20,698 nucleotides of DNA from Burkholderiaceae bacterium (lineage in GTDB: Bacteria; Pseudomonadota; Gammaproteobacteria; Burkholderiales; Burkholderiaceae_D), in the NCBI GenBank assembly GCA_049672545.1, contig JBATWJ010000176.1:1-20698 (forward strand), in the 5' to 3' direction. Positions 345 through 20,152 of this stretch are shown one piece after another. The notes beneath the pieces were generated by a model. The model made no database searches. It was given only the letters and a program-made list of their open reading frames with translations, and was not told the origin of the DNA. The translations under genes and the position numbers were made by a program. Position 1 is the stretch's first letter. Each line of letters opens with the position of its first letter.

Positions 345-911
345 TCATCGGCCGACCTCAAAGCGGCGCGCGTAGTACCGAGCTTCGCGCCCGAAGATTG
401 TCGGGAACCGCTGCTCGATCATCTCGATCACCTTTTTGTTGATGCGCCGGGTGTTGAACATCTGCGCGACGTCGATGGTCTGCACCGGCCGGATCGGCAG
501 CCGCTTCTTCCCTTCCCGCACGAACACGGTACGACCCTTGTTGCCGATGAAAGCGCTGCGGATCAGCTTGCGGCCGCCCTGCTTGCTGATCCTCACCGTG
601 ACGCCGGCATTGGTCTGGCGCGCGGCAAAGTGGATCAGGTTCAGGCTACGGCCGCGCTTGGTGGGCGACTCCAGCGCGGCTTCGACGTTGTAGCGGCCAT
701 TCTTGAAGCTGGCGCGAATGATGCGCAGGCTGTCGTTGACGGTTTTCACTGGCAGCACGAACTGCGAGCGGATTTCGCGGCTCATTGCGGTGCGCGCCTG
801 CTCCATGGTCCGGTTCATGGCGCGCGGCACAGCCAGGTCGGTCACTTCGCGCCGCAGATCGTTGATCTGGCGCTGGACGTCCGGGAAGTTGGTGCTGATG
901 CCTAGCTTCAT
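345..911 (-). CDS. Tail-completion-like protein, lambda gpZ (Minor_tail_Z) family
   Basis: Track ORF is 345..959. I start it at ATG 911-909 (MKLGISTNF), which has GGAG 7 nt upstream and an ATGA overlap with the upstream gene's stop at 908-910. The pattern DLAVPRAMNRT...RSAFIGNKGRTVFVREGKKRLPIRPVQTIDV parallels lambda gpZ (AVPGAAAMAINRV...PGAFIQQLKNGRWHVMQRVAGKNRYPIDVVK). Confidence 0.6.
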   Translation of the reverse strand: MKLGISTNFPDVQRQINDLRREVTDLAVPRAMNRTMEQARTAMSREIRSQFVLPVKTVNDSLRIIRASFKNGRYNVEAALESPTKRGRSLNLIHFAARQTNAGVTVRISKQGGRKLIRSAFIGNKGRTVFVREGKKRLPIRPVQTIDVAQMFNTRRINKKVIEMIEQRFPTIFGREARYYARRFEVGR

Positions 912-1204
912 TTCGATCTCCACAACTCGGCCACTGCAGCCCGGCCGCCACGCTTCCATGCCTCTCGTTCGGCCTGCACCTCTTGCCTGATCCGATCCTC
1001 TTCAGCCTGCCGGACCACCTCTTCCTCCGGCGGCACCAGCCGGATGCCGATCACGTGCCCGTTCTCGCTGGCGAAGAACGTCGGCTCGCCGCGCATGCTC
1101 TTGCGAATCTGCGCGTCGATCGCGTCGGCGCCGAAGGCTTCACGCAGCGAATCGATCCACGCGGCCGTCTCGGGCATTACAGCCCGCATCCCTTTTTTCG
1201 ACAT
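908..1204 (-). CDS. Hypothetical 98-aa protein
   Basis: This is the C-terminal part of track ORF 908..1519. Start is ATG 1204-1202 (MSKKGMRAVMPETAAW...) with GGAGG upstream. The N-terminal extension in the track is a read-through of the iteron array and is rejected. No family recognised. Confidence 0.6.
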   Translation of the reverse strand: MSKKGMRAVMPETAAWIDSLREAFGADAIDAQIRKSMRGEPTFFASENGHVIGIRLVPPEEEVVRQAEEDRIRQEVQAEREAWKRGGRAAVAELWRSK

Positions 1205-1225
1205 GGCGCCTCCGTTTTTTTGCTG

Positions 1226-1500
1226 TGCAGGGTTATGCAGGGTTGATTGATAACCCTGCATGCCCAAAACCCTTACTGCATAAGGCTCTATGCAGGGTAT
1301 GCAGGGTATGCAGGGTGGTGCGGTTAACACGCGAGAGAATTTTTTTATGGCATTGCTGGAACGATATGCACGCTGTGAATTGAAACTCTCACGTATGCGC
1401 GCGCGGCATACCCTGCATACCCTGCATACCCTGCATGAACCCGCGCCGGCATTGGCTTTCCGGCCTGCAGGGTTGCCCTGGAACCCTGCATAACCCTGCA
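1226..1500. repeat. Iteron array (12 x TGCAGGGT) around an AT-rich core; putative replication origin
   Basis: Forward TGCAGGGT copies at 1226, 1236, 1291, 1300, 1309 and 1466. Reverse ACCCTGCA copies at 1253, 1410, 1419, 1428, 1483 and 1493. Three contiguous 9-mers (ATGCAGGGT) at 1290-1316 are mirrored by three at 1410-1436. The AT-rich stretch gagaatttttttatggcattgctggaacgatatgcacgctgtgaattgaaactctc lies between them. The array sits in the 311-bp non-coding gap directly downstream of the primase-helicase gene. Confidence 0.7.
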
Positions 1501-1515
1501 TGGAACTTCCCGAAT

Positions 1516-4143
1516 TCATGCGAGCCCCTTCAATCCGGACAGATCACGGAAGCGGTCACACTGCCTGCTGAGTGATTCTTCTGGCTTCGTCTCGTCATCC
1601 CATGGAACGATAAACACCGTGCGCTGCTTTTTCGGTTTGCTGCCGAGCGTTACCTCGCGCCGAAATTTCGGCACACGCTGCGCGATCAACTCCGAGAACT
1701 TCGTTATCGACAGCGCCCGGAACCCGTGGCGCTGGCAATACTTCGTGTAGACCATGTGCAGGTCTTCCGACACGCAGCAGCAGTACGGCGCATCCAGTTC
1801 GCCTTGAGACCACGCGGTATAGAACACCTCCCATTCGGGCAGGCCGAAGTTGATGACGCGCTGTTTCGATTCGGTCATCACCGGCCAGGCGTAGGGATCG
1901 AAGTCCCCGGTCGGATATTCCAGCAGGAAGGCATAGAACGCCTCCACCAGGCCATCGCCAAGCGCCGCCTTGATCTGTTCCAGTAGCTGCGGATCGAGCG
2001 GCTGGCGCACATCCACCACCAGCATGCGGCGGTCGTCTTTCTCCAGCGGTAGCGCCTGGAACTCGTTCGACAGCATCACCGCGTTCATGTGGTTCGCCTC
2101 GACGCGGTCGTCCTTGAACTTCTGGCTGATCTGCGTATCGCGGCCGGTGATCATGTGCTTCACCAGGCCGAACCCGGCATACTTGTCCTGCCGCGACAGG
2201 ATTTCCTCGAACAGCACGAACAGCTTTTGCGAGCGCCAGACCGTGTAGTTGCTTTCCAGCTGATTCTGCCCGCCGGTGGCGCCGTGAACGCCATAGATCG
2301 GCTTGACGATCCCCTCGAAGAACAGCGATTTCCCGGTGCCCTGCTTCTCACCGAAGAACAGCAGCGCGGTCTGCATCTTCGCGCCCGGATGTTGGAGCGG
2401 ATACGCCAGCCAGCACAACACCCACTCGAACACTTCCTTGCCGTTCGGCTCCGAAGAACACAAGCTCCACAGCAGGTTCAGCGCCAGCTCCGCCTTCACC
2501 TCGTCGCGCCGTGGCGTCAACGGGAAGCCTTCAAACATGTTGATATGCGTGGCCGGGTCTACGCGTTGCGTCGGATCGAAAACCAGCTTGTCGTAGTCGT
2601 ATTCCCGATGCAGCGGATGACTCAGCCAGCGCGCTGCCAGATCGCCGCCGCGCGCCAGCGCCAGCGCGTCGTAGTGGATCGTGATGCGTTTCTCGAAATC
2701 CCATACCAGCTTCGTTCCATACAGCATCGCGTACCGATCCAGCATGCCGGCCAGCGCCTCGTCCCCCGCCCCCCCGGCATCGGTGGCGACGCCGCGCGAC
2801 AGCTTCGGTAGCGCGCGCGGGCTGATCGTGCGGCGGTCAGCGTGCGCGTCCCAAAAGCGGGCCGACTCCTTGCCGACCATCGCGAGGAAGGCCGGCCGCT
2901 TCATCCGCAGCTTGTTGAGCGAATCCCAAACGTCCGTCGTGCCCTGGATCAAAGCGCAATGCGCCAGCGCCCATTCCAGCGACACGTACCCCATAACCAC
3001 CGGCGCCACACCCGCATCAGGGGGCGCGGGGGATGCTGTGCCGGCGGCGTCATCAATCGACGGTGCATCGACCCAGGGCGGCAGCTGCGCAACCGAGCCT
3101 GCATCAGAGGGCGCGGGAGATTCCACAATGGCCGCCGCGTCAGCTGCCGGCGAGGCCATCAGCTGCGCGCGCACGGCATCCAGCGACTCATGCACGTGCA
3201 GATCGTTGAAGTCGGTCAACTGCGGCAGCGAATCGTCCTTTTTCGTCGCGCGCCGCGGCACCGAAAACACCGGCAGCAGCACCACCGCATTACCGACCGC
3301 GGCAGCGGCTTCCTGCGCCTTCGCCAGCCCCTTGCCGCCGGTCAGATAGTCATCGTCCGCGCAGAAGCGGAACGGGCTGCTCGGATACAGTGCGCGGACG
3401 ATGCGCGCCACCGCCGGCAGCTGGCCGGCATCGAACGCGACGAACACCACCCGGCCACCGGCCGCGCGCACCGACAGCCCGGTGGCATAGCCCTCCACGA
3501 AATCGATGGGCTCGCCATCCGCCGGCGCCGGACCGAGCCGGCAGGCCGCGCCGGACTTGTCCATGCCGGCGCTGTAGCGCTTCTTGCCATCGGCGGCGAT
3601 CAGCTGCTTTCCGACCAGCCGCGCCGGCTCCTCGTCGTAGCGCAACATCGGGATCAGAATCGAGCCGTCCGGCTGGTAGCGGCAGTTTTCGCCAACCACC
3701 TGTTTTCGCACCAGATACGCCGACTCACCGCCACGCGCCGCCCGCCGCCATTGCTCCTGCGCGCGGTTCGCCGCTGCCCGGGCGCGACGCTCCCGCTCGG
3801 CAGACTCTTCAGCCTCGCGTTTCTCACGTTCACGCTGGCGCGCCGCCAATTCCGCCGGCGACGGCAACTCGCCCGGCTTGTCGAAGCGGAAGCCGCGCGG
3901 CTTCGCCAGCGCAAACAGCGTACCGATCCCGACCTTGCCGCCTGCCTTGAACGACTTCCAGACGGCGACCGCGTCATCCGCGTTGTAACTGGCGCCGCGT
4001 TCGCTCCACTCCATCCAGGCTCCGCGGGCATCGTCGCCGAACTCGGCCTTCAGCCCCATCCCGACCTTGATCCATACGTCCCGGTCGTCCGGCGCCACGA
4101 AAGCGAGCGCCTGCCGCGCCTCCTCCAACGTCGCCTGCCTCAT
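1516..4143 (-). CDS. Phage/plasmid primase-helicase, P4 alpha-like (PriCT-2 + Toprim + SF3 helicase)
   Basis: 875 aa. N-terminal PriCT-2-like motif (WIKVGMGLKAEFGD..WMEWSERGASYN..WKSF..GIGTLFALAK). Central Toprim-like segment (VEGYATGLSV..VFVAFDAGQL..FCADDD). C-terminal helicase has Walker A FFGEKQGTGKSLF and a Walker B-like LFVLFEE. The long opposite-strand ORFs here are shadows. Confidence 0.9.
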   Translation of the reverse strand: MRQATLEEARQALAFVAPDDRDVWIKVGMGLKAEFGDDARGAWMEWSERGASYNADDAVAVWKSFKAGGKVGIGTLFALAKPRGFRFDKPGELPSPAELAARQREREKREAEESAERERRARAAANRAQEQWRRAARGGESAYLVRKQVVGENCRYQPDGSILIPMLRYDEEPARLVGKQLIAADGKKRYSAGMDKSGAACRLGPAPADGEPIDFVEGYATGLSVRAAGGRVVFVAFDAGQLPAVARIVRALYPSSPFRFCADDDYLTGGKGLAKAQEAAAAVGNAVVLLPVFSVPRRATKKDDSLPQLTDFNDLHVHESLDAVRAQLMASPAADAAAIVESPAPSDAGSVAQLPPWVDAPSIDDAAGTASPAPPDAGVAPVVMGYVSLEWALAHCALIQGTTDVWDSLNKLRMKRPAFLAMVGKESARFWDAHADRRTISPRALPKLSRGVATDAGGAGDEALAGMLDRYAMLYGTKLVWDFEKRITIHYDALALARGGDLAARWLSHPLHREYDYDKLVFDPTQRVDPATHINMFEGFPLTPRRDEVKAELALNLLWSLCSSEPNGKEVFEWVLCWLAYPLQHPGAKMQTALLFFGEKQGTGKSLFFEGIVKPIYGVHGATGGQNQLESNYTVWRSQKLFVLFEEILSRQDKYAGFGLVKHMITGRDTQISQKFKDDRVEANHMNAVMLSNEFQALPLEKDDRRMLVVDVRQPLDPQLLEQIKAALGDGLVEAFYAFLLEYPTGDFDPYAWPVMTESKQRVINFGLPEWEVFYTAWSQGELDAPYCCCVSEDLHMVYTKYCQRHGFRALSITKFSELIAQRVPKFRREVTLGSKPKKQRTVFIVPWDDETKPEESLSRQCDRFRDLSGLKGLA

Positions 4144-4319
4144 GCGTCATAAGCTCCATGCCAGTACGGCACCCGCTGCCCACCCATCAGCGATGGCGTC
4201 ATGCGGTAGTCGAAAGCGCCGGGACGCGCCGGCATCGCCGCGTAGAAGCGGCGCAGGTCCAGCTCCGCAGGAGGAATCGATGGCGGCGGCGAAGCCGGCT
4301 TTTTCTTCGAGCGGGTCAT
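4140..4319 (-). CDS. Hypothetical 59-aa protein, translationally coupled on both sides
   Basis: MTRSKKKPASPPPSIPPAELDLRRFYAAMPARPGAFDYRMTPSLMGGQRVPYWHGAYDA. Its ATG (4319-4317) overlaps the CII-like stop (ATGA), and its stop (4142-4140) overlaps the primase ATG 4143-4141 (ATGA). It is the only believable part of track ORF 4140..4886. Confidence 0.45.
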   Translation of the reverse strand: MTRSKKKPASPPPSIPPAELDLRRFYAAMPARPGAFDYRMTPSLMGGQRVPYWHGAYDA

Positions 4320-4801
4320 GCCGATTCGCCCGTACCCATCACGCGCGCGCGCAATTCGCACAGCGCCGCCATCGCCTCCTGCATTTCCTTCTCCAGCGCA
4401 TCCAGCACCGCCGGCGGCGGGCGATGGCCGCCGATCGCCTGCGGCACCGCCGTCATCACGTCGCCGAATTCCTTGACCGCGCGCAGCATCGATTGCGCCA
4501 GCGATTCGTCCGACAGATGCGACACGTCCGGCATTTCGAACGCGATCAGGCCGTGGCGCCAGTTCTTCGCGATCAGCGCGCGGCGCGCGTCCGGAACCTT
4601 GGCCTCTTGGCTGTATTCGATGATCAGCGAATCCTCTTCGTCGCTGATGTGATGCGTCGTGATGCTCGGCGCCAGCTTGTTGCGCAGCACGTTGACCGAC
4701 ATCCCCATACGGCGCGCCAGCATCTCGATACCACCGGGATAGGCTCGCGCCAGGTTGTAGCGGGCATCGTGCTGATTCATTTCGGTGTAACGCAGGGTCA
4801 C
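4316..4801 (-). CDS. Phage regulatory protein, coliphage 186 CII-like (CP76 family)
   Basis: 161 aa. GTG start at 4801 has GAGGAG 6 nt upstream. LARRMGMSVNVLRNKLAPSITTHHISDEEDSLIIEYSQE aligns by eye with 186 CII LAERAGMNVQTLRNKLNPEQPHQFTPPELWLLTDLTED. The overlapping 248-aa frame is Arg/Gly/Ala-rich shadow. Confidence 0.7.
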   Translation of the reverse strand: MTLRYTEMNQHDARYNLARAYPGGIEMLARRMGMSVNVLRNKLAPSITTHHISDEEDSLIIEYSQEAKVPDARRALIAKNWRHGLIAFEMPDVSHLSDESLAQSMLRAVKEFGDVMTAVPQAIGGHRPPPAVLDALEKEMQEAMAALCELRARVMGTGESA

Positions 4802-4828
4802 GGCGATCTCCTCGATTTATTACCGATG

Positions 4829-4847
4829 CGCAAGATGTTGTCTTGCG
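4829..4847. repeat. Perfect 7-bp inverted repeat CGCAAGA-tgttg-TCTTGCG in a divergent intergenic region
   Basis: Read directly from the sequence. It lies between the CII-like start (4801, minus) and the 73-aa ORF start (4937, plus). No U-tract on either strand, so a protein-binding site is more likely than a terminator. Function unknown. Confidence 0.3.
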
Positions 4848-4936
4848 AATACTCTTGCTTTTCATGCAAATAGGCGGGGGTTCCAAGGTGATACATTGCA
4901 GATTCCACTCAACAACTTTTCAGCGAAGGAACCCCC

Positions 4937-5158
4937 ATGAAACTGAAAACCATTACCTTGGGCGAGCTCAAGAGCAAACTGCAGTGGGTACTGGCGCTTC
5001 CCGACGACACGGAAATCACGTTTGGCGGCGGCGACTTGAGTTTTTTCACTGCGAAGACCTCGCTCTACGATGCGGCCGACCAACCCAAGATCGTGCAGCT
5101 CCGATTCAACGAGATCTACAAAGTCGTCATCGACCCGGATTCGGATTCCGCCGCATAA
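4937..5158 (+). CDS. Hypothetical 73-aa protein, oriented against the surrounding leftward operon
   Basis: ATG is preceded by AAGGAA. G/C-rich third codon positions in this frame. MKLKTITLGELKSKLQWVLALPDDTEITFGGGDLSFFTAK... No family recognised. Confidence 0.55.
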   Translation: MKLKTITLGELKSKLQWVLALPDDTEITFGGGDLSFFTAKTSLYDAADQPKIVQLRFNEIYKVVIDPDSDSAA

Positions 5159-5406
5159 GCCCGTTCGGCTTGTCCGCGTCGCCGCAGGATTTCCTGCAGC
5201 GGCAGCCGGCGTGCCCATCCATCCAGCATGGTCCCGAGCGATCCGATCGGCCGCGGGAAATACGATTCCATCGGCGCTCTGTCCGGGACGATGGCGGCCG
5301 ACGGGTGGAATACCGACCAGCTGTAGGCCCCCTTTTCTATCTTGATCACCACCGTGCAGCCTTCGCGTGGGTACTCGTCGGTGCGGTAGATCGCATCAAT
5401 GCTCAT
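5116..5406 (-). CDS. Hypothetical 96-aa protein
   Basis: Track ORF is 5116..5424. I start it at ATG 5406-5404 (MSIDAIYRTDEYPREGC...), with AAGAGG 6 nt upstream. Good GC3. Its 3' end overlaps the convergent 73-aa ORF by 43 nt. Confidence 0.55.
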   Translation of the reverse strand: MSIDAIYRTDEYPREGCTVVIKIEKGAYSWSVFHPSAAIVPDRAPMESYFPRPIGSLGTMLDGWARRLPLQEILRRRGQAERAYAAESESGSMTTL

Positions 5407-5474
5407 GGGCAACCTCTTTGACAAAAATCAATGATGAAAAATTGGGCAAAAAAAGAGAGGCACTCCGGCGCGGA

Positions 5475-5699
5475 TCATTTACGCGCTCCACGCAGGTATG
5501 CCCAGTACTCCGCCATATCCGGACGGAGCTCTTCGCAGGTCACGGCGGAGTTGGTGGCCTGCTCGATCTGGACGCAGCGAGACAGTGGAATCTTGCGCAC
5601 ACCGCGCGCCCATTGGCTGATCAGCGCCGACGGGACGGATAGCACCTTTGCTAGCGCCGCTTGGGCGCCGCTTGGCTTTACGTAGTCGAGTAGTTGCAT
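5475..5699 (-). CDS. Cro / YdaS-like HTH regulator (74 aa)
   Basis: MQLLDYVKPSGAQAALAKVLSVPSALISQWARGVRKIPLSRCVQIEQATNSAVTCEELRPD matches the Cro/YdaS-type pattern (..lgvs.qaVSqW..g.r.iP..r...IE.aT.G.Vt.eeLRPD). It is divergent from the CI-like gene across an operator-containing gap. The longer track start (5786) would cover all the operators and is rejected. Confidence 0.75.
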   Translation of the reverse strand: MQLLDYVKPSGAQAALAKVLSVPSALISQWARGVRKIPLSRCVQIEQATNSAVTCEELRPDMAEYWAYLRGARK

Positions 5700-5706
5700 G
5701 CGCTCA

Positions 5707-5776
5707 ATTATTAGCGATACGCTAAAAAAGAGCAATAGCGTAACGCGAATTCCCAATTTTAGCGTTTTGCTATTGA
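5707..5776. promoter_or_regulatory. OR-like switch region: three operators TAGCG-N3-CGCTA plus divergent promoters
   Basis: O1 is TTAGCGATACGCTAA at 5711-5725, a perfect palindrome. O2 is TAGCGTAACGCGA at 5736-5748. O3 is TAGCGTTTTGCTA at 5760-5772. Their centres are 24 bp apart. Leftward promoter on the minus strand: TTGCTC (5735-5730), 17 nt, AATAAT (5712-5707), overlapped by O1. Weak rightward promoter: -10 TATTGA at 5771-5776, overlapped by O3, with a poor -35 abutting O2. Confidence 0.7.
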
Positions 5777-5784
5777 ATGGCGGC

Positions 5785-6522
5785 ATGTTCCTGACAGTCG
5801 AAGATGTTCGCCGCAGACGCCTTGCTCAACTGGTTGCCAAGTTCGGGGGAGTTAGCGCTCTTGCGTCCAAGATCGAAAAAAGCCCTGCTCAAGTGAGTCA
5901 ATGGCTGAATGCGTCGCCCGATTCCCGCACCGGAAAGCCCAGAGGAATGCGACCTGGCACGTGTCGTCAAATCGAAGAGATATGCGGCGAGCCGCCAGGA
6001 TGGATGGATCGGCCCGACGAAGATGTTGGAGCTGCCGCGGTCATGCAAAACGAACGCGGCGGCCTTTACGATATGAACGTGCGCGCCGCGACAATCGGCG
6101 CGCGCACCATTCCCGTAATTTCAGCTGTGCAAGCAGGGAACCTGCAAGAGATCGCCGACCCATACCCACCGGGCGCCGGCTTCGCGGTCGAATTTATCGA
6201 CGATCAAAGCGGGTATTCGCGCTGGGCCTTCGCACTGGAAATCGACGGGCTTTCAATGCTGCCAGAGTTCCACCCCGGCGACCGCATCATCGTCGACCCG
6301 GAGGTAGCGCCGGCCCCGGGAGATTTCGTGGTGGCCCGCAACACGCACGAGGAAGCGACGTTTAAAAAATATCGACCGCGCGGGATGGATCAGAATGGCA
6401 ACATGATTTTCGAACTCGTCCCGCTGAACCCTGACTACCCGACTATGCGCAGCGACGTGGAGCACCTGGAGATTATTGGGGTCATGGTGGAACACCGGAA
6501 AAAACGGCGACCGAGGCGCTAA
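5785..6522 (+). CDS. CI-like repressor, HTH + S24 (LexA-type) autopeptidase domain
   Basis: Track ORF is 5698..6522. I start it at ATG 5785 (MFLTVEDVRRRRLAQLV...) so that the operators stay non-coding. The N-terminal HTH (SALASKIEKSPAQVSQWLN) resembles the phage CI repressor domain. The C-terminal part carries the S24 signatures GLSMLPEF (catalytic Ser) and ATFKKY (Lys). Confidence 0.85.
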   Translation: MFLTVEDVRRRRLAQLVAKFGGVSALASKIEKSPAQVSQWLNASPDSRTGKPRGMRPGTCRQIEEICGEPPGWMDRPDEDVGAAAVMQNERGGLYDMNVRAATIGARTIPVISAVQAGNLQEIADPYPPGAGFAVEFIDDQSGYSRWAFALEIDGLSMLPEFHPGDRIIVDPEVAPAPGDFVVARNTHEEATFKKYRPRGMDQNGNMIFELVPLNPDYPTMRSDVEHLEIIGVMVEHRKKRRPRR

Positions 6523-6554
6523 CCTATGCAAAGCCACATACCTGGGGAGGAATC

Positions 6555-7271
6555 ATGAAACAGATGCTCTTGCTTGCAATCGTCACAACACTCCTTATCG
6601 GATGTAGCGACCCCCGTGCGACCATGCTTTCCACCGCAGACGCCGATAAAGAAAAAATGCAGACGGCTATGCAGAAAATAACCGAAGAGGAGCGCACTCT
6701 GGTAGCTGGCTACATGATGCGTACCATGTTGGCGAACGCCTTTGCCGGCAAGACCGACACCCCTCTCGGCGTAACTATTGGTGATGCGATCAAGAAGCAG
6801 AGGGAATGGCTGTCGGCCGAAAAAAAGCGAGATGCCGAGGAAGCCGCGCTCAAGGCCAAGCTGGCGGCCGAAGAAGAGGCGTTCCAGCAACAAGTAAACG
6901 GTGCCGTAGCAGTCACGGTGCTCGAAAAAACGCTGCTACCAGAAAATTTCGATCGCCGCCGCTACTCCGCGGTGCAGGTGATCAAGCTAGGGTTTGAAAA
7001 CAAGAGCGAAAAGGACATCGCTGGCATTTCCGGCGAAGTGGCCTTTTACGACATCTTTGACAAGGAAGTCGGCAGCATCATTTTCTCTTACGACGACGGC
7101 ATCAAGGCAGGCTCTACAGCGAGTTGGACTGGTGAGCGTAAGTTCAACGAATTCTTACGCGAGCATAAGGCGCTGGCCAACTTGGAGGAAGGGAAATACA
7201 CGACCCGCTTCAAGCCAGATACGATCGTTTTTTCCGACGGAACCAAGCTAAAAGCCACGCGCAAGGATTAA
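6555..7271 (+). CDS. Prophage lipoprotein (238 aa), candidate lysogenic-conversion / exclusion factor
   Basis: GGGGAGG RBS. Signal peptide with lipobox MKQMLLLAIVTTLLIG|CSD. A charged coiled segment (EKKRDAEEAALKAKLAAEEEAFQQQ) is followed by a beta-rich C-terminal domain. It lies 32 nt downstream of cI on the same strand with no visible terminator between them. Visibly lower G+C than its neighbours. Confidence 0.8.
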   Translation: MKQMLLLAIVTTLLIGCSDPRATMLSTADADKEKMQTAMQKITEEERTLVAGYMMRTMLANAFAGKTDTPLGVTIGDAIKKQREWLSAEKKRDAEEAALKAKLAAEEEAFQQQVNGAVAVTVLEKTLLPENFDRRRYSAVQVIKLGFENKSEKDIAGISGEVAFYDIFDKEVGSIIFSYDDGIKAGSTASWTGERKFNEFLREHKALANLEEGKYTTRFKPDTIVFSDGTKLKATRKD

Positions 7272-7950: not shown

Positions 7951-8499
7951 TCAGTAGAGGCTTATGTGCCGGTCGGTTCGTGCGATATCCGTACTGCCGT
8001 CGAGCAGGTCCGGATATTCGTTGAGGTACTGCCAGGCGAAATCGCTGATGTTGTGCGCAAACCCCTCGATGATGCTGCCCTGCGCGGCGGCACGGTAAAT
8101 GATCCGCGCGGCTACCAAACCCTGCACGACGCCATCGTCGATACGCAGTGTATTGCTGCGCGTCTCCTGGCCTATGTAGAACCGGAGTATCTGCTTTTCG
8201 TCTTCAGTCAGAGCGTGCAGGCGCTCCGTCATACGCTGCTGGAACTTCCGCTTTCGCCTCCAGGTGTCGACCAGCGCACCGGCACGGATACATACGCCCA
8301 CCAGCAGCAGCGCGATCGAACCCAGCAACGCCAACCCCATCACCGAGCGATTGTCCTTTGCAAATTGGGCAACGCCGAGGTGCTGCAGCAGTTGCTCGTC
8401 GGCATACAACAGGACCCCCGCCACCACGCCGAACGCCACGAAATAACGTGGCGCCAGCTTCAAGAGCTCCAGCAGCGCCTTGACGATCTCCGCAGTCAT
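7951..8499 (-). CDS. Superinfection exclusion protein B (SieB)-like membrane protein
   Basis: 182 aa. Two N-terminal hydrophobic helices (YFVAFGVVAGVLLY; VMGLALLGSIALLLVGVCI) are followed by a basic patch RRKRKFQQ. Then comes LHALTEDEKQILRFYIGQETRSNTLRIDDGVVQGLVAARIIY, which matches the SieB family pattern (Lt..Ek.iLr.f......t..l..dd.vv.gL....Ii). The codon-aligned plus-strand ORF 7900..8514 is Gln/His/Arg-rich shadow. Confidence 0.75.
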   Translation of the reverse strand: MTAEIVKALLELLKLAPRYFVAFGVVAGVLLYADEQLLQHLGVAQFAKDNRSVMGLALLGSIALLLVGVCIRAGALVDTWRRKRKFQQRMTERLHALTEDEKQILRFYIGQETRSNTLRIDDGVVQGLVAARIIYRAAAQGSIIEGFAHNISDFAWQYLNEYPDLLDGSTDIARTDRHISLY

Positions 8500-10788: not shown

Positions 10789-11312
10789 GAACACTCCGCC
10801 GCAAACAGCACCGCCCACGCCGCATCGATCCCGCCGGCGGCCTGTCCGTGTTCCTGCGCATGCAGGACCGCGCCGAGAATGCCCGGCCGATCGGCAACGA
10901 CGCCCGCACCGACCTGCAGCTGGCCTACTGGATCAGCTTCCACGCCATGACGCAAGGCGCATCGAGCGAGGAACACTGGTCCGTGGTCGCCGTCTCGCTC
11001 AACGTCGCGCTGATCCTCACCGAACACGGCTTCGGCCGCGAATACGAGCCCTACGTCATCAAGGCGCTGGACGCCGCTTTCCGCGCCCACCAGCGCGGCC
11101 AGCGCACCGGCGCCTGGCGCTACGACGGCGAAGGCATCAACGCCGTGCGCGACGCGCTGGAGCTGCACGACGAGCAGCTGGCCCTGGCCACCAAAGACCA
11201 GGTGCGTGCCGCCCTCGCCGAAGTCAATCGCCGCGTCGACGCCGGCGACGTCTACCAGGCCGTTCCGCTTTCCGCCCCCGCCACCACCACCCCCGAAGGG
11301 ATCGCCTTATGA
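10785..11312 (+). CDS. Hypothetical protein (175 aa)
   Basis: MRTLRRKQHRPRRIDPAGG... ATGA overlap at 10785-10788. It is the C-terminal part of track ORF 10728..11312. Confidence 0.55.
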   Translation: MRTLRRKQHRPRRIDPAGGLSVFLRMQDRAENARPIGNDARTDLQLAYWISFHAMTQGASSEEHWSVVAVSLNVALILTEHGFGREYEPYVIKALDAAFRAHQRGQRTGAWRYDGEGINAVRDALELHDEQLALATKDQVRAALAEVNRRVDAGDVYQAVPLSAPATTTPEGIAL

Positions 11313-11632
11313 GAGTGAACATCTACGCCGAAGAAATGACGGATCGAATCGAGATCATCAGCAAAGAGATCGACGGACGATCCTACACCGGCCTGCGCCT
11401 TTATCTCGAACTGCCCGTCACGCTGCCGGATGGCTCCAACAAGGCCGGCCCATTCATGCACCGTCCCGGCGACGACGACAGCGCTGCCATCACGTTCTGG
11501 GGCAAGCGCGACCTGCGCGCGGTGCTGCGCCAGATGCTGACGAAGCTGGACGAACACTACGGCCAGGCGGCGCCTGGCGCAGCGCAACCCCTTCCGGGCG
11601 CGACGCCCGACAACTCCAGGAGCCCCGCATGA
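11309..11632 (+). CDS. Hypothetical protein (107 aa)
   Basis: MRVNIYAEEMTDRIEIISKEIDGRSYTGLRLYLELPV... ATGA overlaps at both ends (11309 and 11629). The rest of track ORF 10700..11632 is Arg/Pro-rich out-of-frame read-through. Confidence 0.55.
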   Translation: MRVNIYAEEMTDRIEIISKEIDGRSYTGLRLYLELPVTLPDGSNKAGPFMHRPGDDDSAAITFWGKRDLRAVLRQMLTKLDEHYGQAAPGAAQPLPGATPDNSRSPA

Positions 11633-13608
11633 ACACCATCGTTGAACCCGCTTTCGGCATCATCCCGCTCGATCTGATCCGCGAGAGCAAGACTAATCCA
11701 CGCAAGCGCTTTTCCGAAACCGCGCTGGGCGAGCTGGCCGAGAGCATCAATCGCTCCGGCGTCGGCCAGCCGATCCTGGTGCGGCCACTGGCCAATGAAG
11801 ACGGCGAGCCGGCCCACCGCGTCGAGATCGTCGCCGGCGCCCGCCGCTACCGTGCCTCGCTGCTGGCCGGCAAGGACAGCATCCCGGCGATCGTGCGCGA
11901 TATGTCCGACGCCGAGGTGTTGGAATTCCAGCTGGTCGAAAACCTGCAGCGCGAAGACGTCCACCCGATCGAAGAGGCCGAGGGTTACGAGCGGATGATG
12001 TCGGAGCTGCATCTGAACGCCGACCAGGTCGCCGAGAAAGTCGGCAAGAGCCGTTCGTACATCTACGGCCGCCTGAAGCTGTGCGCGCTGACGCCGGACG
12101 CGCGCGAGGCGTTCTACGACGGCAAGCTGTCGGCCAGCACCGCGCTGCTGATCGCCCGCATCCCGGTGCCCGAGCTGCAGGTGCGCGCGATCAAGGATGT
12201 CTGTGGCAGAAACGGCGGCGAACCGATGTCGTACCGGACCGCGCAGAACCACATCAGCCACAACTTTACGCTGCATCTGTCTAAAGCGCCCTGGTCGATC
12301 GACGATGCCGAACTGCTGCCCGGCGCCGGGAGCTGCGCCGCATGCCCGAAGCGCTGCGGCAATCAGCCGGAGATCTACCCGGACGCGCATCCAGACGTCT
12401 GCACTGATCCGGATTGTTTCGATCAGAAGCGCAAGGCTAGTTACGCACGGATCGAGACCACCGCCGCCAGCGACGGCATACCGATTTTTGATTACGAGTC
12501 AACGGAAGGCAAAAACCTAAGAACTAGTGCCGATCACAGTCTTGATTACGAGCAGCTGTATTCGATGGACCGGGAAAAATCCGGCAGCCAGCGTTACCAG
12601 CGCCTCGATGAAGTCCTCTCGCACGACCAACTCCCGCCGACAGTTGCATTTCTTCGGCTCAGCGACGGAAGCTTGACCGGCGTCTACTTGAAGACCGCGA
12701 TGCAGGCAGCGCTGGAGCGCGCCTGCATCTGCTACACCGAAGCCGAGCAGGCAGAGATCGACCGGCAGAACGAGCAATCTGAAGAACCCGAAACCGCGGA
12801 ACAGATCGCAAAGCGCGCGCAAAAGGCCGCGGAGGCTGAGGCTCGCAACCGCCGCGCCGACGAAGAGACCGCGCTGCGCCTCGAAACCTACCGCCGGATT
12901 CGGTCGAAGAATAACGGCATCACCGACGCTGCGCTCCGGTACATCGCTAAAACCTTCCTGTCCGAATATCCCGTTCTCACAGAATTGTCGGAGTTTTACC
13001 CGGACGGCTGCGACCATGAAGCGATCACCAAGATGATCGATACCGCCTCAAGGCCGACGGTGGAATGCATGCTGCTGGACCTGTGCACCTCATTTCTTAT
13101 CTCGGTCGCCACCTGGGAAATCGACAGGACCAACGGCCGCGACGACGAATATCAGGAGCTTGCCGAGTTAGCCAGCGCGCACGGCATCGACATCGAGCAG
13201 GTGCGCGCCGAACTGTACCCGCCGGCACCGCCGGCCGAGCCTGAAGATCAGGCCAAACAGCCAGAGCCGACTGAGGAGCATGCGGATCCTGCCGCCGCCG
13301 CAGATCCTGCGGAACCCGCAAAGGATAGCCACGAGCCCCTCGCGATCGGCGACACGGTGCGCATCAAGGATGGTCTCAAAGGCCCGAACGGCAAGGCGCG
13401 CAAGTGCTGCGGCCGCACCGGCACGATCTCTTCTGCCGTCGACGGCGCCTATGTCGTGACGGTCGGCAAATCCAACCATGCTCAGCTGACACGCGACGAC
13501 CTGGAGAAGGTCCAGCCGGCGGCCGAGCCGCAGGAAGAAGCCAAGCCGGCGGCACCTGCAGATGCATATGCGAACTCGGCGTGGCCGTTTCCGCGGAGGG
13601 GAAGCTGA
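11629..13608 (+). CDS. ParB/Srx N-terminal-domain protein (659 aa) with HTH, Cys cluster and KOW/SH3-like tail; no ParA partner
   Basis: Start is ATG 11629 (MNTIVEPAFGIIPLDLI), an ATGA overlap. ParB box II-like IVAGARRYRA, box III LVENLQREDV, and an HTH (ADQVAEKVGKSRSYIYGRLKL). Cys cluster CAACPKRCGN..VCTDPDC. Acidic/Pro-rich linker. C-terminal IGDTVRIKDGLKGPNGKARKCCGRTGTI. The 141-aa N-terminal extension in track ORF 11206..13608 is rejected. Confidence 0.8.
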   Translation: MNTIVEPAFGIIPLDLIRESKTNPRKRFSETALGELAESINRSGVGQPILVRPLANEDGEPAHRVEIVAGARRYRASLLAGKDSIPAIVRDMSDAEVLEFQLVENLQREDVHPIEEAEGYERMMSELHLNADQVAEKVGKSRSYIYGRLKLCALTPDAREAFYDGKLSASTALLIARIPVPELQVRAIKDVCGRNGGEPMSYRTAQNHISHNFTLHLSKAPWSIDDAELLPGAGSCAACPKRCGNQPEIYPDAHPDVCTDPDCFDQKRKASYARIETTAASDGIPIFDYESTEGKNLRTSADHSLDYEQLYSMDREKSGSQRYQRLDEVLSHDQLPPTVAFLRLSDGSLTGVYLKTAMQAALERACICYTEAEQAEIDRQNEQSEEPETAEQIAKRAQKAAEAEARNRRADEETALRLETYRRIRSKNNGITDAALRYIAKTFLSEYPVLTELSEFYPDGCDHEAITKMIDTASRPTVECMLLDLCTSFLISVATWEIDRTNGRDDEYQELAELASAHGIDIEQVRAELYPPAPPAEPEDQAKQPEPTEEHADPAAAADPAEPAKDSHEPLAIGDTVRIKDGLKGPNGKARKCCGRTGTISSAVDGAYVVTVGKSNHAQLTRDDLEKVQPAAEPQEEAKPAAPADAYANSAWPFPRRGS

Positions 13609-14868: not shown

Positions 14869-14964
14869 ATGCACCCAGCCTTTCTCGCAATCATCAAGCT
14901 GCTTGCCCAGCAGGCAGTTAAAAACCACCTGAACCCACAGCAGCCGAAGCCAGCCCCGAAATGA
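14869..14964 (+). CDS. Possible 31-aa leader/coupling ORF upstream of the integrase
   Basis: MHPAFLAIIKLLAQQAVKNHLNPQQPKPAPK. A GGGGG run lies about 8 nt upstream. Its stop overlaps the integrase ATG (ATGA at 14961-14964), and the integrase has no obvious Shine-Dalgarno of its own. Not in the ORF track because it is too short. Confidence 0.3.
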   Translation: MHPAFLAIIKLLAQQAVKNHLNPQQPKPAPK

Positions 14965-16535
14965 GAGTCGCCGCCTACTGCCGATTTTCGTCCGACGCCC
15001 AGCGCGAGACGTCGATCCGCGACCAGCTGCGCAACATCGAGGTTTACTGCGAGCGCATGGGCTGGCCGACGCCGGCGCTGTACCAGGACCAGGCGATCAG
15101 CGGCGCCCGCAGCGACCGGCCCGGCTACCAGGCCATGCTCGACGCGGCGGCCGTCGACGCCTTCGACGTGCTGCTGGTCGACGATCTGTCGCGGCTGTCT
15201 CGCGATCACATCGAATGCGCGCAGACGATCCGGCGCCTGAAGTTCGCCGGCATTCGCGTGATCGGTGTGTCCGACAGCGTCGACACCGAGCGCGACGGCT
15301 ACAAGCTGGAGACCGGCCTGCGCGGCCTGATGTCCGAGTTCTACCTCGACGACCTGGCCAAGAAGACGCACCGCGGATTGATGGGGCAGGCGCTCGACGG
15401 TTACAGCGCCGGCGGCCTGCCCTACGGCTACACCAGTGTAAGCGATGGCAAGGGATCGAAGAAGGTGATCGACGAAGACGAGGCACGCTGGGTGCGCTAC
15501 GTCTTCGAACGCTACGCGCTGGGCTGTTCGCCGCGCCAGATCGCCGACGAGCTGAACCGCCAGGGCGTGCCCAGTCCGCGCGGCGGCACCTGGGCGCACT
15601 CAGCGCTGTATCCCGACAGCAAGGGCGTCGGCATGCTCGGCAATCCGATCTACAACGGCCGCCAGGTCTGGAACCGCACCGCCTGGACCAAAGACCCGCT
15701 CACCGGCCGCCGGCGCCGCACGATGCGGCCGCAGTCGGAGTGGGTGATCATCGATTCACCCGAGCTGAAGATCATCGACGACGACACCTGGCGCGCCTGC
15801 GAAGCCCGCACGCGCGCCGCCAAGCGCGACACCGCCAGCAAGCGCGACGCGGGCAAGGGACCAGGCGGCCGCGCCCCGAAGTACTTGTTCTCCGGCCTGC
15901 TGAAGTGCGGCAGCTGCGGCGGTGCCTTCGTCATCCAGGGCCGCGACCACTACGGCTGCGCCACGCACAAGGATCGCGGCGCCTCGGTCTGCAGCAACGG
16001 CCTGAAGGTCAAGCGCGCCACGATCGAGCGCGTGCTGCTGGCCGGCGTGAAGGAAACCTTGCTTTCCGAAAACGCCTACCGCGCCTTCGAAGCCGAAGCG
16101 CGCAATCTGTTGAAGCTGGCCAAGCCGGACCCGGCCAACGCACGTCGACGCCTGGCCACCGCGAAGAAGGAACTCGACAACCTGATGGCGGCCATCAAGG
16201 CCGGCATCGTCACCGCCACCACCAAGGCCGTACTGGAAGAAGCCGAGCGCCAGGCGGCCGCGGCCCAGCAGGAGCTGAAGACGATCGAGCAATTCGAGCC
16301 GACGCAGCTGCTGCCGCGCGCCAAGGAAATCTATCAGGGATTGGTTGCCCAGCTGGAAGCCGTCGACGACATAGCGGCCGCGCGCGAAGCCTTGAAGGCG
16401 CTGATCGGTGAAGTGAGGATGCTGCCGGAAAACGGCATGCTGACTGCAGAAATACAAAACGCCGGACTGGCCGGCGCTTGTGGAATAACTGTGGTTGCGG
16501 GGACAGGATTTGAACCTGTGACCTTCGGGTTATGA
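14961..16535 (+). CDS. Large serine recombinase (phage integrase type)
   Basis: 524 aa. N-terminal resolvase catalytic domain (MRVAAYCRFSSDAQRETSIRDQ...VLLVDDLSRLSRD). Recombinase domain (GGLPYGY...WVRYVFERYA). Zinc-ribbon CGSCGGAFVIQGRDHYGCATHKDRGASVCSN, then a coiled-coil. The last 44 nt are antisense to tRNA-fMet (C-terminus ...VAGTGFEPVTFGL). Confidence 0.9.
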   Translation: MRVAAYCRFSSDAQRETSIRDQLRNIEVYCERMGWPTPALYQDQAISGARSDRPGYQAMLDAAAVDAFDVLLVDDLSRLSRDHIECAQTIRRLKFAGIRVIGVSDSVDTERDGYKLETGLRGLMSEFYLDDLAKKTHRGLMGQALDGYSAGGLPYGYTSVSDGKGSKKVIDEDEARWVRYVFERYALGCSPRQIADELNRQGVPSPRGGTWAHSALYPDSKGVGMLGNPIYNGRQVWNRTAWTKDPLTGRRRRTMRPQSEWVIIDSPELKIIDDDTWRACEARTRAAKRDTASKRDAGKGPGGRAPKYLFSGLLKCGSCGGAFVIQGRDHYGCATHKDRGASVCSNGLKVKRATIERVLLAGVKETLLSENAYRAFEAEARNLLKLAKPDPANARRRLATAKKELDNLMAAIKAGIVTATTKAVLEEAERQAAAAQQELKTIEQFEPTQLLPRAKEIYQGLVAQLEAVDDIAAAREALKALIGEVRMLPENGMLTAEIQNAGLAGACGITVVAGTGFEPVTFGL

Positions 16536-16685: not shown

Positions 16686-17261
16686 ATGAAATTCTGTTCC
16701 GAATGCGCCCATCCGGTCGCGCTGCTGATTCCGCCGGACGACAATCGTCCGCGCTTCGTCTGCAATCACTGCGGCACCATCCATTACCAGAACCCGAAGA
16801 TGGTGATCGGCTCGATTCCGGTCTGGCAGCAGGATGGGCAAGTGCAGGTGCTGCTGTGCCGGCGCGCGATCGAGCCGCGCTACGGCTACTGGACGCTGCC
16901 GGCCGGCTTCATGGAAAACGACGAGACCACCGGCGAGGCGGCGGCGCGCGAAACGCTGGAAGAAGCCGGCGCCCGCATCGAACTGCATGAACTGTTTTCA
17001 CTGCTGAACGTGCCGCGCGTGCACCAGGTCCACATGTTCTATCGCGCCACGCTCCTGGATCTCGACTACGCCGCCGGCACCGAAAGCCTGGAAGTGCAGA
17101 TGTTCACCGAGGCGCAGATCCCCTGGGACGAGATCGCCTTCCCGACCGTCAGCCAGACGCTGAAATTCTTTTTCGCCGATCTGGAACGGATCCGGCGCCA
17201 AGGCGGCGGTTTCAGGCTGCACACGGAAGACATCGTGCGCTCGATGCGGCGCCCGGATTGA
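16686..17261 (+). CDS. NUDIX hydrolase with N-terminal zinc ribbon
   Basis: CSEC...CNHCG zinc ribbon, then the Nudix box GFMENDETTGEAAARETLEEAGA (GX5EX7REUXEEXGU). Confidence 0.9.
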   Translation: MKFCSECAHPVALLIPPDDNRPRFVCNHCGTIHYQNPKMVIGSIPVWQQDGQVQVLLCRRAIEPRYGYWTLPAGFMENDETTGEAAARETLEEAGARIELHELFSLLNVPRVHQVHMFYRATLLDLDYAAGTESLEVQMFTEAQIPWDEIAFPTVSQTLKFFFADLERIRRQGGGFRLHTEDIVRSMRRPD

Positions 17262-17379
17262 TGGGGTATGCCGTTTTTTCGGTCTATCCGGCAGCATCCA
17301 CGAGCACCATTGAAATTACTCCCTATCAGTATATGAGTGATCCACGAGCAGTGCCGTCCTGTCCGGCCGGAGGCGGCGC

Positions 17380-18117
17380 GTGATCCCGTGGCTGCAGACC
17401 GATACGCCGTTCCCGCCGGTGGAGCGGGCGCTGACCGAAGCGGATGGCGCGCCGGGCCTCCTGGCGGCTGGCGCCGACCTGTCGCCGGAGCGGCTTTTGG
17501 ACGCCTACCGGCACGGCATCTTCCCGTGGTTTTCCGACGGCCAGCCGATCCTGTGGTGGAGCACCGACCCGCGCATGGTGCTGTGGACCGAGCGCCTGCG
17601 AATTTCCGACAGTCTGAAAAAGACCCTGAAGAAGATCGACAACGACCTGCGCGCCGAGCGCCGCTGGGAAGTGCGCTTCGACACCGCGTTCGAGGCGGTG
17701 ATGCGGGCCTGCGCGGCACCGCGCATCGAGCGTGACGGCAGCGCCGCCGGTACCTGGATCAGCGACGACATCATCGCCGGCTACGGCGCGCTGCACCGGC
17801 GCGGCTACGCGCATTCCTGCGAGCTGTGGCGCGACGGCGAGCTGGTGGCCGGCGCCTACGGCGTGGCGATCGGCCGCATGTTCTATGGCGAGTCGATGTT
17901 TACCCGCGTCAACGACGGCTCCAAGGTGGCACTGGCCTACCTGGTGCACTTCCTGCGCCGCCACGGCGTGGCGATGATCGACTGCCAGCAGGAGACCGCC
18001 CACCTGGCGTCGCTGGGCGCCGAGCCGATCGCGCGTGCCGAATTCATCGCCCATCTGGCCGGCGCGATCGAGCAGCCGCCGATCGCCTGCTGGCAACCGC
18101 TGCCGCTGTACGCGTAA
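17380..18117 (+). CDS. aat: Leucyl/phenylalanyl-tRNA--protein transferase
   Basis: GTG start. [43 protein letters not shown] and [16 protein letters not shown] align by eye with E. coli Aat ([59 protein letters not shown]). Confidence 0.9.
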
Positions 18118-18216
18118 CGCACGAACGGCGCGGTGCCGCCCGCGCCGCGAAACTTTTGCGCCGCCCGCGCCATCCGTGTACATTGGAAGCGTCGCTCTCG
18201 TTGTCCCCGAACGCTC

Positions 18217-18939
18217 ATGACCCACCTGAAAGACGTTCCCTTCTCGACGCTGCAGTTCTACGCGACCGCACCCTACGGCTGCAGCTACCTGCCGCAGCGG
18301 CAGGCGCGCTCGCAGGTGGCGACGCCCTCGCACCAGATCAACGCCGACGTCTATTCGCAGCTGGTGAAAAGCGGCTTCCGCCGCAGCGGCATCTTTACCT
18401 ACCGGCCCTACTGCGACGGCTGCGCCGCCTGCATCCCGGTGCGGGTACAGGCCGAACGCTTCGCCGCCAACCGCAGCCAGCGCCGCGCCTGGCAACGCCA
18501 TCAGTCGCTGACGGCGCGCATTTCCGACCTCATCTACCTGCCCGAACACTATGACCTGTACCTGCGCTACCAGGCGGCGCGCCACGCCGGCGGCGGCATG
18601 GACCAGGACAGCCGCGAGCAGTACGCGCAGTTCCTGCTGCAGAGCAAGGTCAATACGCGGCTGGTCGAATTCCGCGACACCGGCAGCGCACTGCGCATGG
18701 TCAGCATCATCGACCTGCTGGACGACGGCCTGTCGTCGGTCTACACCTTCTACGATCCGGACATCGCCGGCGCCTCGTTCGGCACCTTCAACATCCTGTG
18801 GCAGATCGCGCAGGCGCGCCAGCTCGGCCTGCCCTACGTCTATCTCGGCTACTGGATCGAGGAAAGCCCGAAGATGGCCTACAAGATCAACTTCCGGCCG
18901 CTCGAGGCGCTGCGCCAGGGACGCTGGAGCCTGATGTAG
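18217..18939 (+). CDS. bpt: Arginyl-tRNA-protein transferase family (bacterial Bpt/Ate, N-degron pathway)
   Basis: I start it at ATG 18217 ([17 protein letters not shown]); the track starts at 18133. ATE_N/ATE_C pattern: CSYLP..., GFRRSG...[25 protein letters not shown]. It follows aat, as is common. Confidence 0.88.
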
Positions 18940-19021
18940 CGGCGCCTGCCGCACAAGCGCGGCAGCGCACGTTGTCCGCGTTACAATGGCGGCCGTTTTG
19001 CGCCGCCACTTTCTCCCTGCC

Positions 19022-20077: not shown

Positions 20078-20152
20078 GGAGTATGGATTAGAAACGGCCG
20101 GCTAGCGCCCGGCATAGAGGCCCCACACGGGGAGTATCTTCCGGACGCCGGC

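Follow-up and report, generated by a model that had tools for sequence, protein, structure and literature searches.

A mirror-arranged iteron array beside a primase-helicase gene is the probable replication origin of a Burkholderiaceae prophage

Results

The stretch of DNA considered here (the window) is the whole 20,698-bp contig JBATWJ010000176.1 of a metagenome-assembled genome of a Burkholderiaceae bacterium. The right part of a prophage lies on it, the left part being beyond the contig end. Our subject is an array of short repeats, or iterons, that follows the prophage gene for an 875-residue primase-helicase and that we propose to be the prophage replication origin. In the visible portion of the prophage (16.6 kb), cI stands on one side and cro, cII, the primase-helicase gene, the array, and the late genes succeed one another on the other, with a serine recombinase gene bounding the element (Table 1). 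The gap directly downstream of the primase-helicase gene, which separates it from a gene for a 98-residue protein, measures 311 bp (1205-1515), the length reported in an earlier first-pass annotation of this DNA. The array begins 16 nucleotides past the stop codon of the primase-helicase gene, which belongs to the early operon.

Table 1. Features of the window discussed in the text, in order of position
Feature	Position	Strand	Remarks
Minor-tail-Z/tail-completion-like gene	345-959	-	After the 98-residue gene
98-residue gene	908-1204	-	Directly after the array; own GGAGG ribosome-binding site at 1209-1213
Open frame, 203 codons	908-1519	-	ATG overlaps the primase-helicase stop codon (ATGA); crosses the array and runs in frame into the 98-residue gene
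Iteron array, proposed replication origin	1226-1500		Octamer search, repeat search, homologous arrays in 31 loci; forward copies at 1226, 1236, 1291, 1300, 1309, 1466; reverse copies at 1253, 1410, 1419, 1428, 1483, 1493
Gene-distal outer cluster	1226-1260		Copies at 1226 (+), 1236 (+), 1253 (-)
Gene-distal spacer S	1261-1289	-	TATGCAG-TAA-GGGTT on the gene strand
Gene-distal inner triplet	1290-1316	+	Three ATGCAGGGT units, 9-bp period
Low-GC centre, proposed unwinding region	1335-1395		GC 0.39; T7/A7 tract at 1340-1346
Alternating purine/pyrimidine tract	1390-1405		16 nucleotides, CACGTATGCGCGCGCG; just inside the proximal triplet
Gene-proximal inner triplet	1410-1436	-	Three ATGCAGGGT units, 9-bp period
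Gene-proximal spacer S	1437-1465	-	Related to AAAGCCA...CATGCGGGTT of relatives; iteron-like GCGCGGGTT inside; multi-locus alignment
Gene-proximal outer cluster	1466-1500		Copies at 1466 (+), 1483 (-), 1493 (-); palindromic pair TGCAGGGTT-N7-AACCCTGCA
Primase-helicase gene, 875 residues	1516-4143	-	Proposed initiator; Pfam and PHROG matches
C-terminal domain, residues 725-875	1519-1971	-	Predicted winged helix; proposed iteron-binding domain
First strand of the wing, residues 826-830 (KFRRE)	1654-1668	-	Candidate specificity determinant; co-varies with the iteron
CII	4316-4801	-	
cro/YdaS	5475-5786	-	
cI-like S24 repressor	5698-6522	+	
Large serine recombinase	14961-16535	+	Right end of the prophage; host genes next
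Host genes Nudix, aat, ate, pyrD, carbonic anhydrase	16686-20683		Beyond the serine recombinase

An exact search for the octamer TGCAGGGT returns 13 copies in the window, compared with 0.45 expected, a count that none of 100 shuffles reached. Twelve of these, six forward and six reverse, lie within 1226-1500, as the first-pass annotation had counted. For all six forward/reverse pairs the start of one copy and the end of its partner sum to 2726, which gives an exact mirror axis at 1363, and the layout reads FFR-FFF-[93 bp]-RRR-FRR, with six iterons on each side; symmetry and layout are both as first described. The same annotation saw no further copy in the window, a statement that has to be corrected: a thirteenth exact copy, at chance level, occurs at 8119-8126 on the minus strand. 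It lies inside a SieB-like superinfection-exclusion gene (7951-8499, minus strand), which holds the sole copy outside the array.

A repeat search recovers the array as perfect 27-nucleotide inverted arms (1290-1316/1410-1436) and as outer inverted arms of 47 nucleotides that match at 79% (1226-1272/1454-1500). The long hairpin predicted for a single strand of the array (z = -10.9) only restates these inverted repeats. Searching Rfam with the array at a permissive threshold yielded sub-threshold noise only, and a promoter and terminator scan found neither a sigma-70-like promoter nor a terminator inside it.

Outside the iterons, the two arms match as mirror images at 19 of 43 positions, and the earlier view of the spacers as non-palindromic thus largely holds. 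A multi-locus alignment shows the 30-bp spacers of the two arms to be direct repeats, in the same orientation and not inverted. The spacer sequence of relatives is AAAGCCAgtATCCATGCGGGTTTC, and an iteron-like fossil, ATGCGGGTT, persists in the spacers where the true iterons have changed (the window and the related loci L002-L013 and L044-L048).

Between the inner triplets, the stretch 1340-1394 has a GC fraction of 0.40 compared with 0.635 for the window. GAGAGAA at 1333-1339 (TTCTCTC on the gene strand) precedes the T7/A7 tract. The alternating purine/pyrimidine tract near the gene-proximal triplet is the longest such run in the window, and a tract of at least 12 nucleotides is present in the centre of 29 of the 31 arrays that we compared (the window, L001-L019, L026, L036, L040, and L042-L049), compared with 6.6% of background 330-bp windows. 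The tract usually starts about 5 nucleotides past the gene-proximal triplet and is of the CG/CA type, with a variable sequence. The array of Moraxella Mcat4 is without a tract of at least 12 nucleotides, and none was seen in the crr and ori sequences of P4. On the other side of the centre, the gene strand carries an A-tract and then TTCTCTCGCG, and relatives whose iterons differ show this arrangement too.

A scan of species-representative genomes gave 35 loci encoding relatives of the primase-helicase, mostly Oxalobacteraceae prophages. Isolated phages were found by tblastn against phage records, and closer metagenomic relatives by contig look-ups and by protein searches, which gave several hundred homologues. 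Our comparison set comprises all 31 loci with the 3' end of the gene and enough downstream DNA, and the array of each locus is its densest 8-mer cluster or visible iteron array. In all 31, an array of short repeats in both orientations starts 0-100 nucleotides after the stop codon, and the arrays of the related loci span about 190-290 bp. Isolated phages with an equivalent array are PG1, pAN, LPPA56, Mcat4, and H4907. The shared layout, kept across phages of Beta- and Gammaproteobacteria, is an outer cluster, a spacer of about 30 bp, a triplet at 9-bp period, and a low-GC centre of 71-105 bp, followed by the mirror image; the triplet with its 9-bp period is present in essentially all relatives.

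The repeat itself changes from group to group (Table 2), and further iteron cores among the 31 loci are TGTTAGCA, CCGAACGC, GTTCCRGG, TGAAYAGT, and ACCCRACAC. In a MAFFT alignment the window array can be matched over its full length with arrays of the Massilia group; the spacers are recognisably homologous, and all twelve repeats have switched together. Concerted replacement of all copies with their positions kept is the signature expected of sites that co-evolve with one binding protein. In the array of L049 (about 4175-4450), the proximal arm consistently carries AACCGGGT and the distal arm AACTGGGT, read as the complement.

Table 2. Iterons of the window and of related loci, with the motif of the first wing strand of the primase-helicase where given
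Source	Iteron	Wing motif
Window	ATGCAGGGT	KFRRE
Massilia, Duganella, Undibacterium	TAACAGGGT	[KR]DRQW (with TAACAGGGT in 12/12 loci)
L001, L044, L045	TTACAGGGT	KSRQx (L001: RSRQK)
L046	TGTAGGGT / TGCAGGGT	KSRQx (with TGTAGGGT)
L049	AACCGGGT	KGRVW
Aquitalea	TGTGAAGG	
Thiomicrospira	TGATACCC	
Chromatiaceae	CGCACGGG	
Pseudomonas phages PG1, pAN, LPPA56	GTGTTGGGT / GTGTCGGGT	
Halomonas phage	TCAGACAG	
Moraxella Mcat4	GTGCAGGGT	

The inner clusters have the same axis as the outer ones in the window, L001, L016, and L018. In L003, L005, and L044-L049 the inner and outer axes lie 1-2 nucleotides apart, and in the other loci the outer signal is too weak to place. Because relatives deviate in this way, we take near-symmetry to be the rule of the family and the exactness seen in the window to be incidental. 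Exact mirror spacing, which relatives do not keep, is thus not demonstrably required, and we rejected it as a conserved requirement.

The array stays beside the primase-helicase gene while the neighbouring genes and the terminase vary, with a P27-like terS and HNH in L001 and Nu1/GpA in L044 and L045. In relatives, the HNH/terS/terL genes lie 1-2 kb downstream. The complete genome of PG1 holds 11 of its 12 iteron copies in a single array and thus has no second site. No second iteron cluster was found in the 16.6 kb of visible prophage, where there is one stray copy only, or within about 4 kb on either side of the array in relatives.

The domains of the 875-residue protein are a PriCT_2 N terminus, a Toprim primase, an SF3 helicase of the DUF5906/VapE-like type, and a predicted C-terminal winged helix. 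Its sequence match in the PDB is the NrS-1 primase-helicase (6k9c/6k9e). Compared with P4 alpha by BLASTP, the Toprim region is 34% identical (E = 2e-15), and the helicase region matches weakly (E = 0.006). The C-terminal domain was modelled with AlphaFold2 from a 75-sequence alignment at a predicted local distance difference test score (pLDDT) of 87; this model replaced one made from five sequences (pLDDT 46). It shows a helix-turn-helix followed by a β-hairpin, with helices at 68-82 and 89-96 and hairpin strands at 102-107 and 115-120. The best Foldseek matches in the PDB are all winged-helix DNA binders, namely Orc1/Cdc6 on origin DNA (2qby), RFX, RFX5, and MarR, and none has E < 1e-3 (E above 0.01). 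The comparison with RFX (1dp7) has a probability of 0.92 and a root-mean-square deviation of 2.9 over 60 columns. Neither the origin-binding domain of P4 alpha nor PriRep5 is among the top 50 Foldseek matches. A profile search gives weak matches to RFX5 and to the C-terminal domain of SaPI5 PriRep5, and the motif LY..Y..C...G....S..KF of this domain is also found in P4 alpha and in proteins of the Pox_D5 type.

Co-variation of the iteron with the primase-helicase in related prophages, a comparison that the first-pass annotation had suggested, is positive: with arrays in 31 of 31 loci, the iteron type follows the C-terminal domain (Table 2). Similarity among C-terminal domains groups by iteron type and not by N-terminal clade. 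L047 illustrates this exchange, as its N-terminal 330 residues are 67-69% identical to those of L044, L045, L046, and L001, whereas its C-terminal domain is 72-75% identical to those of L002, L006, and L048, which have the same iteron as L047. For two loci, P0009 and P0012, TAACAGGGT was predicted from the wing motif before the loci were fetched, and the prediction was borne out in both.

Repeats of ATGCAGGGT also flank an AT-rich centre directly after other primase-helicases in three IMG/VR loci (L055, 12969-13098; L058, 6095-6262; L060, 4293-4500). The primase-helicases of these loci have a RepB-primase or Prim-Pol N terminus and then D5_N, DUF5906, and Pox_D5. A tblastn search of 19 viral contigs containing ATGCAGGGTATGCAGGGT with the window protein gave no match; the arrays of those contigs belong to other D5-type primase-helicases.

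The first-pass annotation called the gap non-coding. This is probably right, because substitutions in relatives show no codon-position bias; yet the gap is spanned by the open frame 908-1519. In 16 of the 31 loci a forward frame is open across the array, far above shuffle expectation and mostly at P ≤ 0.05, and an open frame with the ATG overlap is present in the window, L001, L005, L011, L036, L040, L043-L046, L048, and L049. In close pairs, substitutions in the array show no preference among codon positions (for example, 14/22/27, compared with 14/7/42 in the neighbouring coding sequence), and the frame in which homologous array bases are read differs from locus to locus. It may be that translation across the origin is selected (anti-polarity) or that the open frame is an artefact of composition.

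The 98-residue protein matches no Pfam or PHROG family. Its homologues, with the motif MP..AA.ID.LR..FG...ID.QIR....G.P.F.A.ENG, directly follow the array in L001, L005, L011, L019, L044-L047, and L049, although not in all relatives. The protein may be a replication accessory factor; we rejected it as the iteron binder because several loci keep the array without the gene. The tail-completion-like gene (345-959 in the window, 7510-8295 in L013) has an unusual position in this phage group, directly behind the replication module and ahead of HNH and terS. Elsewhere in the prophage, the leftward early region encodes an 800-residue protein with ParB_N and HTH_ParB domains (11206-13608, plus strand), and no repeat cluster was seen adjacent to it. 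A megablast search of phage records with 900-4200 gave no match, and looking up contigs that encode the window protein yielded a single one, of 9 kb, which did not supply the left part of the prophage.

Discussion

We consider it likely, with good confidence, that the array serves the prophage as its origin of vegetative replication, one of the type found in Staphylococcus aureus pathogenicity islands (SaPIs) and other phage-inducible chromosomal islands (PICIs), and that it is bound by the adjacent self-loading helicase. The comparative evidence thus bears out the original suggestion of a candidate origin for the primase-helicase. The origins of these satellites lie directly 3' of rep or pri-rep and consist of 6-12 iterons in two opposed sets that flank an AT-rich region (PMC9371898, PMC6092414). 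The initiator that acts on them is an SF3 or SF6 helicase that loads itself and in some cases carries a primase as a fusion, and its C-terminal winged helix binds the iterons; two hexamers have been proposed to load, one on either side, and replication from these origins was shown experimentally (PMC9371898, PMC6092414). The systems that we compared are SaPI1, SaPIbov1, SaPI5 PriRep5, and EcCICFT073.

The window shares with these systems an array immediately 3' of the initiator gene (as in all 31 loci), six iterons per side with inner triplets FFF and RRR, a low-GC centre (0.39-0.40 compared with 0.635), and an initiator helicase with a DUF5906/VapE-like SF3 core and a predicted C-terminal winged helix. 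There are differences as well. The host element here is a full temperate phage and not a satellite, with cI/cro/cII and a serine recombinase; genes for terminase, portal, capsid, and tail occur in relatives, and the head, tail, and lysis modules of PG1 are complete. Iterons here have a length of 8-9 bp rather than 5-6, each arm is composed of an outer cluster and a 9-bp-period triplet split by a direct-repeat spacer, and an alternating purine/pyrimidine tract brackets the centre. An origin of this type is already known from phage satellites, and the identification is solid rather than surprising. New or unexplained are the purine/pyrimidine tract in the centre, the direct-repeat spacers, and the frame that is open through the array.

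We propose that the predicted winged-helix domain of the adjacent primase-helicase would bind the TGCAGGGT iterons, with the KFRRE strand of the wing adding specificity. The two mirror half-sites of six iterons each would nucleate one SF3 hexamer per side of the centre, and the low-GC centre with its A-tract would melt. The Toprim domain would then lay primers for extension by the host polymerase, and forks would leave both ways. Binding, melting, bidirectionality, and the double hexamer are proposed by analogy with SaPI Rep proteins; priming and the correspondence of one iteron to one protomer are proposals as well.

Several points weigh against this assignment. For this element and its close relatives, binding and replication are themselves inferred from that analogy. 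P4, the nearest characterised relative at the protein level, has at the position of the array the auxiliary element crr and not its initiation site, and the left part of our prophage, beyond the contig, leaves room for a second iteron cluster in this element. The centre was described as AT-rich in the earlier annotation; its GC fraction is indeed well below that of the window, but the AT-richness is moderate, and among the 60-bp segments of the window the centre ranks sixth, not first, for low stability. The DNA encoding the C-terminal domain abuts the array, so that co-variation of the two could reflect linkage and co-inheritance rather than recognition. Finally, the same octamer occurs with unrelated C-terminal domain sequences (Mcat4, L055, L058, and L060), and there is consequently no simple recognition code.

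The comparison with P4 deserves separate attention, as the primase-helicase had first been described as P4-alpha-like. That description stands for the Toprim and SF3 parts, but the array has its closest precedent in SaPI/PICI origins and, as regards position, in the crr of P4, not in the ori of P4. Like the window protein, P4 alpha combines a Toprim primase (Toprim_3), a DUF5906 SF3 helicase, and a C-terminal DNA-binding domain, which is predicted here and has only a short motif in common with that of alpha. Both systems have octamer iterons in both orientations and an iteron-rich cis element directly 3' of the gene. Because the P4 record places crr (4291-4590) directly 3' of alpha (4636-6969), the position of the window array corresponds to that of crr. 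P4, however, needs a second element, ori, some 2.1 kb upstream of alpha, whereas a single cluster is seen in the window and in PG1. Moreover, crr is a direct duplication of a 120-bp module of five iterons, whereas the window array is a mirror image, and the type-1 iteron of P4 is TGTTCACC, whereas that of the window is TGCAGGGT. The N terminus is a Zn ribbon in P4 alpha and PriCT_2 here, and Pfam D5_N and Pox_D5 go undetected in the window protein.

More distant systems offer partial parallels. The core origins of SV40 and papillomaviruses are bound by SF3 helicases that have their own origin-binding domains (large T antigen and E1). These origins are two-fold symmetric with inverted sites, and two hexamers assemble on them and melt the flanking DNA, an arrangement analogous to the array. 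The analogy has its bounds, in that these are eukaryotic viruses with an unrelated origin-binding fold, and their sites are central with melting outside, the reverse of the window array. Lambda-type origins and iteron plasmids (O protein, RepA, and π) likewise have repeats of the initiator site beside an AT-rich unwinding element and an origin linked to the initiator gene. Their iterons, however, are direct repeats of 17-22 bp, their initiators are not helicases and must recruit the host DnaB, and the lambda ori lies inside gene O.

Among other explanations, the position of crr suggests that the array could be an auxiliary element that binds the primase-helicase and is needed in cis, with initiation at a separate ori, as in P4. 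There, the octamers of ori recur in crr, which repeats with a period of 180 bp, close to the 175 bp at which the R-spacer-F module recurs in our array; a separate ori could be situated in the missing left part of our prophage. We regard this as unlikely, given the single cluster in the complete PG1 genome, the lack of a second one in the 16.6 kb of visible prophage and in about 4 kb around the arrays of relatives, and the mirror symmetry around a low-GC centre, which is like that of the proven SaPI/PICI origins and not like the direct duplication of crr. The repeats could instead be operators at which a regulator, perhaps the primase-helicase, controls read-through of early transcription into the late genes or drives the downstream gene. 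The array does lie between early and late genes of one transcription unit, its palindromic pairs (TGCAGGGTT-N7-AACCCTGCA) resemble dimer operators, and an origin may also act as a roadblock to read-through. A role in transcriptional control is nevertheless improbable in our judgment: the scan for a promoter or terminator in the array was negative, the downstream gene varies between loci whereas the array is constant, the repeats track the helicase C-terminal domain, and twelve sites over 275 bp with a conserved unwinding-type centre are unlike an operator layout.

The nearby terminase genes of relatives and the ParB-like protein of the prophage raise the possibility of a packaging site (cos/pac) or a partition site (parS), centromeres often being arrays of repeats. 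Against such a role, which we think highly improbable, the array is kept with different terminase families (L001 compared with L044 and L045), PG1 has the array and no annotated ParB, and the array is always at the primase-helicase stop codon, with other genes intervening before terS. The variation in terminase type and the PG1 genome led us to reject both the parS and the cos/pac readings. It is equally hard to credit that the frame 908-1519 encodes a genuine protein and that the repeats merely reflect repetition in its peptide sequence, even though the ATG of the frame overlaps the stop codon of the preceding gene, about half of the loci have an open forward frame across the array, and gene callers annotate such frames. 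The codon-position statistics, on which we rejected the coding hypothesis, and the reading of homologous bases in different frames between loci both argue against it, as do the occurrence of the repeats in both orientations, the separate ribosome-binding site of the 98-residue gene, and the absence of any family match for the translated region. Translation would in any case be compatible with origin function, as the location of the lambda ori within a gene illustrates.

A further reading goes beyond assignment to the SaPI/PICI type. In those temperate phages of Beta- and Gammaproteobacteria whose genomes encode Toprim/SF3 primase-helicases, the arrays might form a distinct, undescribed class of origin with several features of its own, an idea that we hold only tentatively. 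The fixed grammar of two sets of six iterons, each with an outer cluster, a direct-repeat spacer with a fossil iteron, and a 9-bp triplet, may template a double hexamer with one protomer per iteron. Z-DNA-prone purine/pyrimidine tracts that bracket the unwinding element may function in melting or priming. The frame may be kept open through the origin, with ribosomes crossing it, and specificity may be re-programmable via a few wing residues. Our literature searches returned nothing relevant on the octamer or on the origin of this phage group.

The assignment of the array as an origin of the SaPI/PICI type has practical consequences. Gene callers now place spurious open reading frames over arrays of this kind. 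The natural pairs of wing and iteron (KDRQW with TAACAGGGT, KSRQx with TTACAGGGT, KFRRE with ATGCAGGGT, and KGRVW with AACCGGGT) would be usable for analysing or redesigning the specificity of origins and the incompatibility of replicons, and the cassette of gene plus origin (1205-4143) is a candidate minimal replicon for Burkholderiales vectors. The conserved alternating purine/pyrimidine tract is a new and testable feature of origin anatomy. Overall, the array and its neighbouring gene would provide an annotated origin and cognate initiator for widespread, uncharacterised temperate phages of Burkholderiales, Pseudomonas, Moraxella, and Halomonas, and the origin layout known from PICIs would not be exclusive to satellites.

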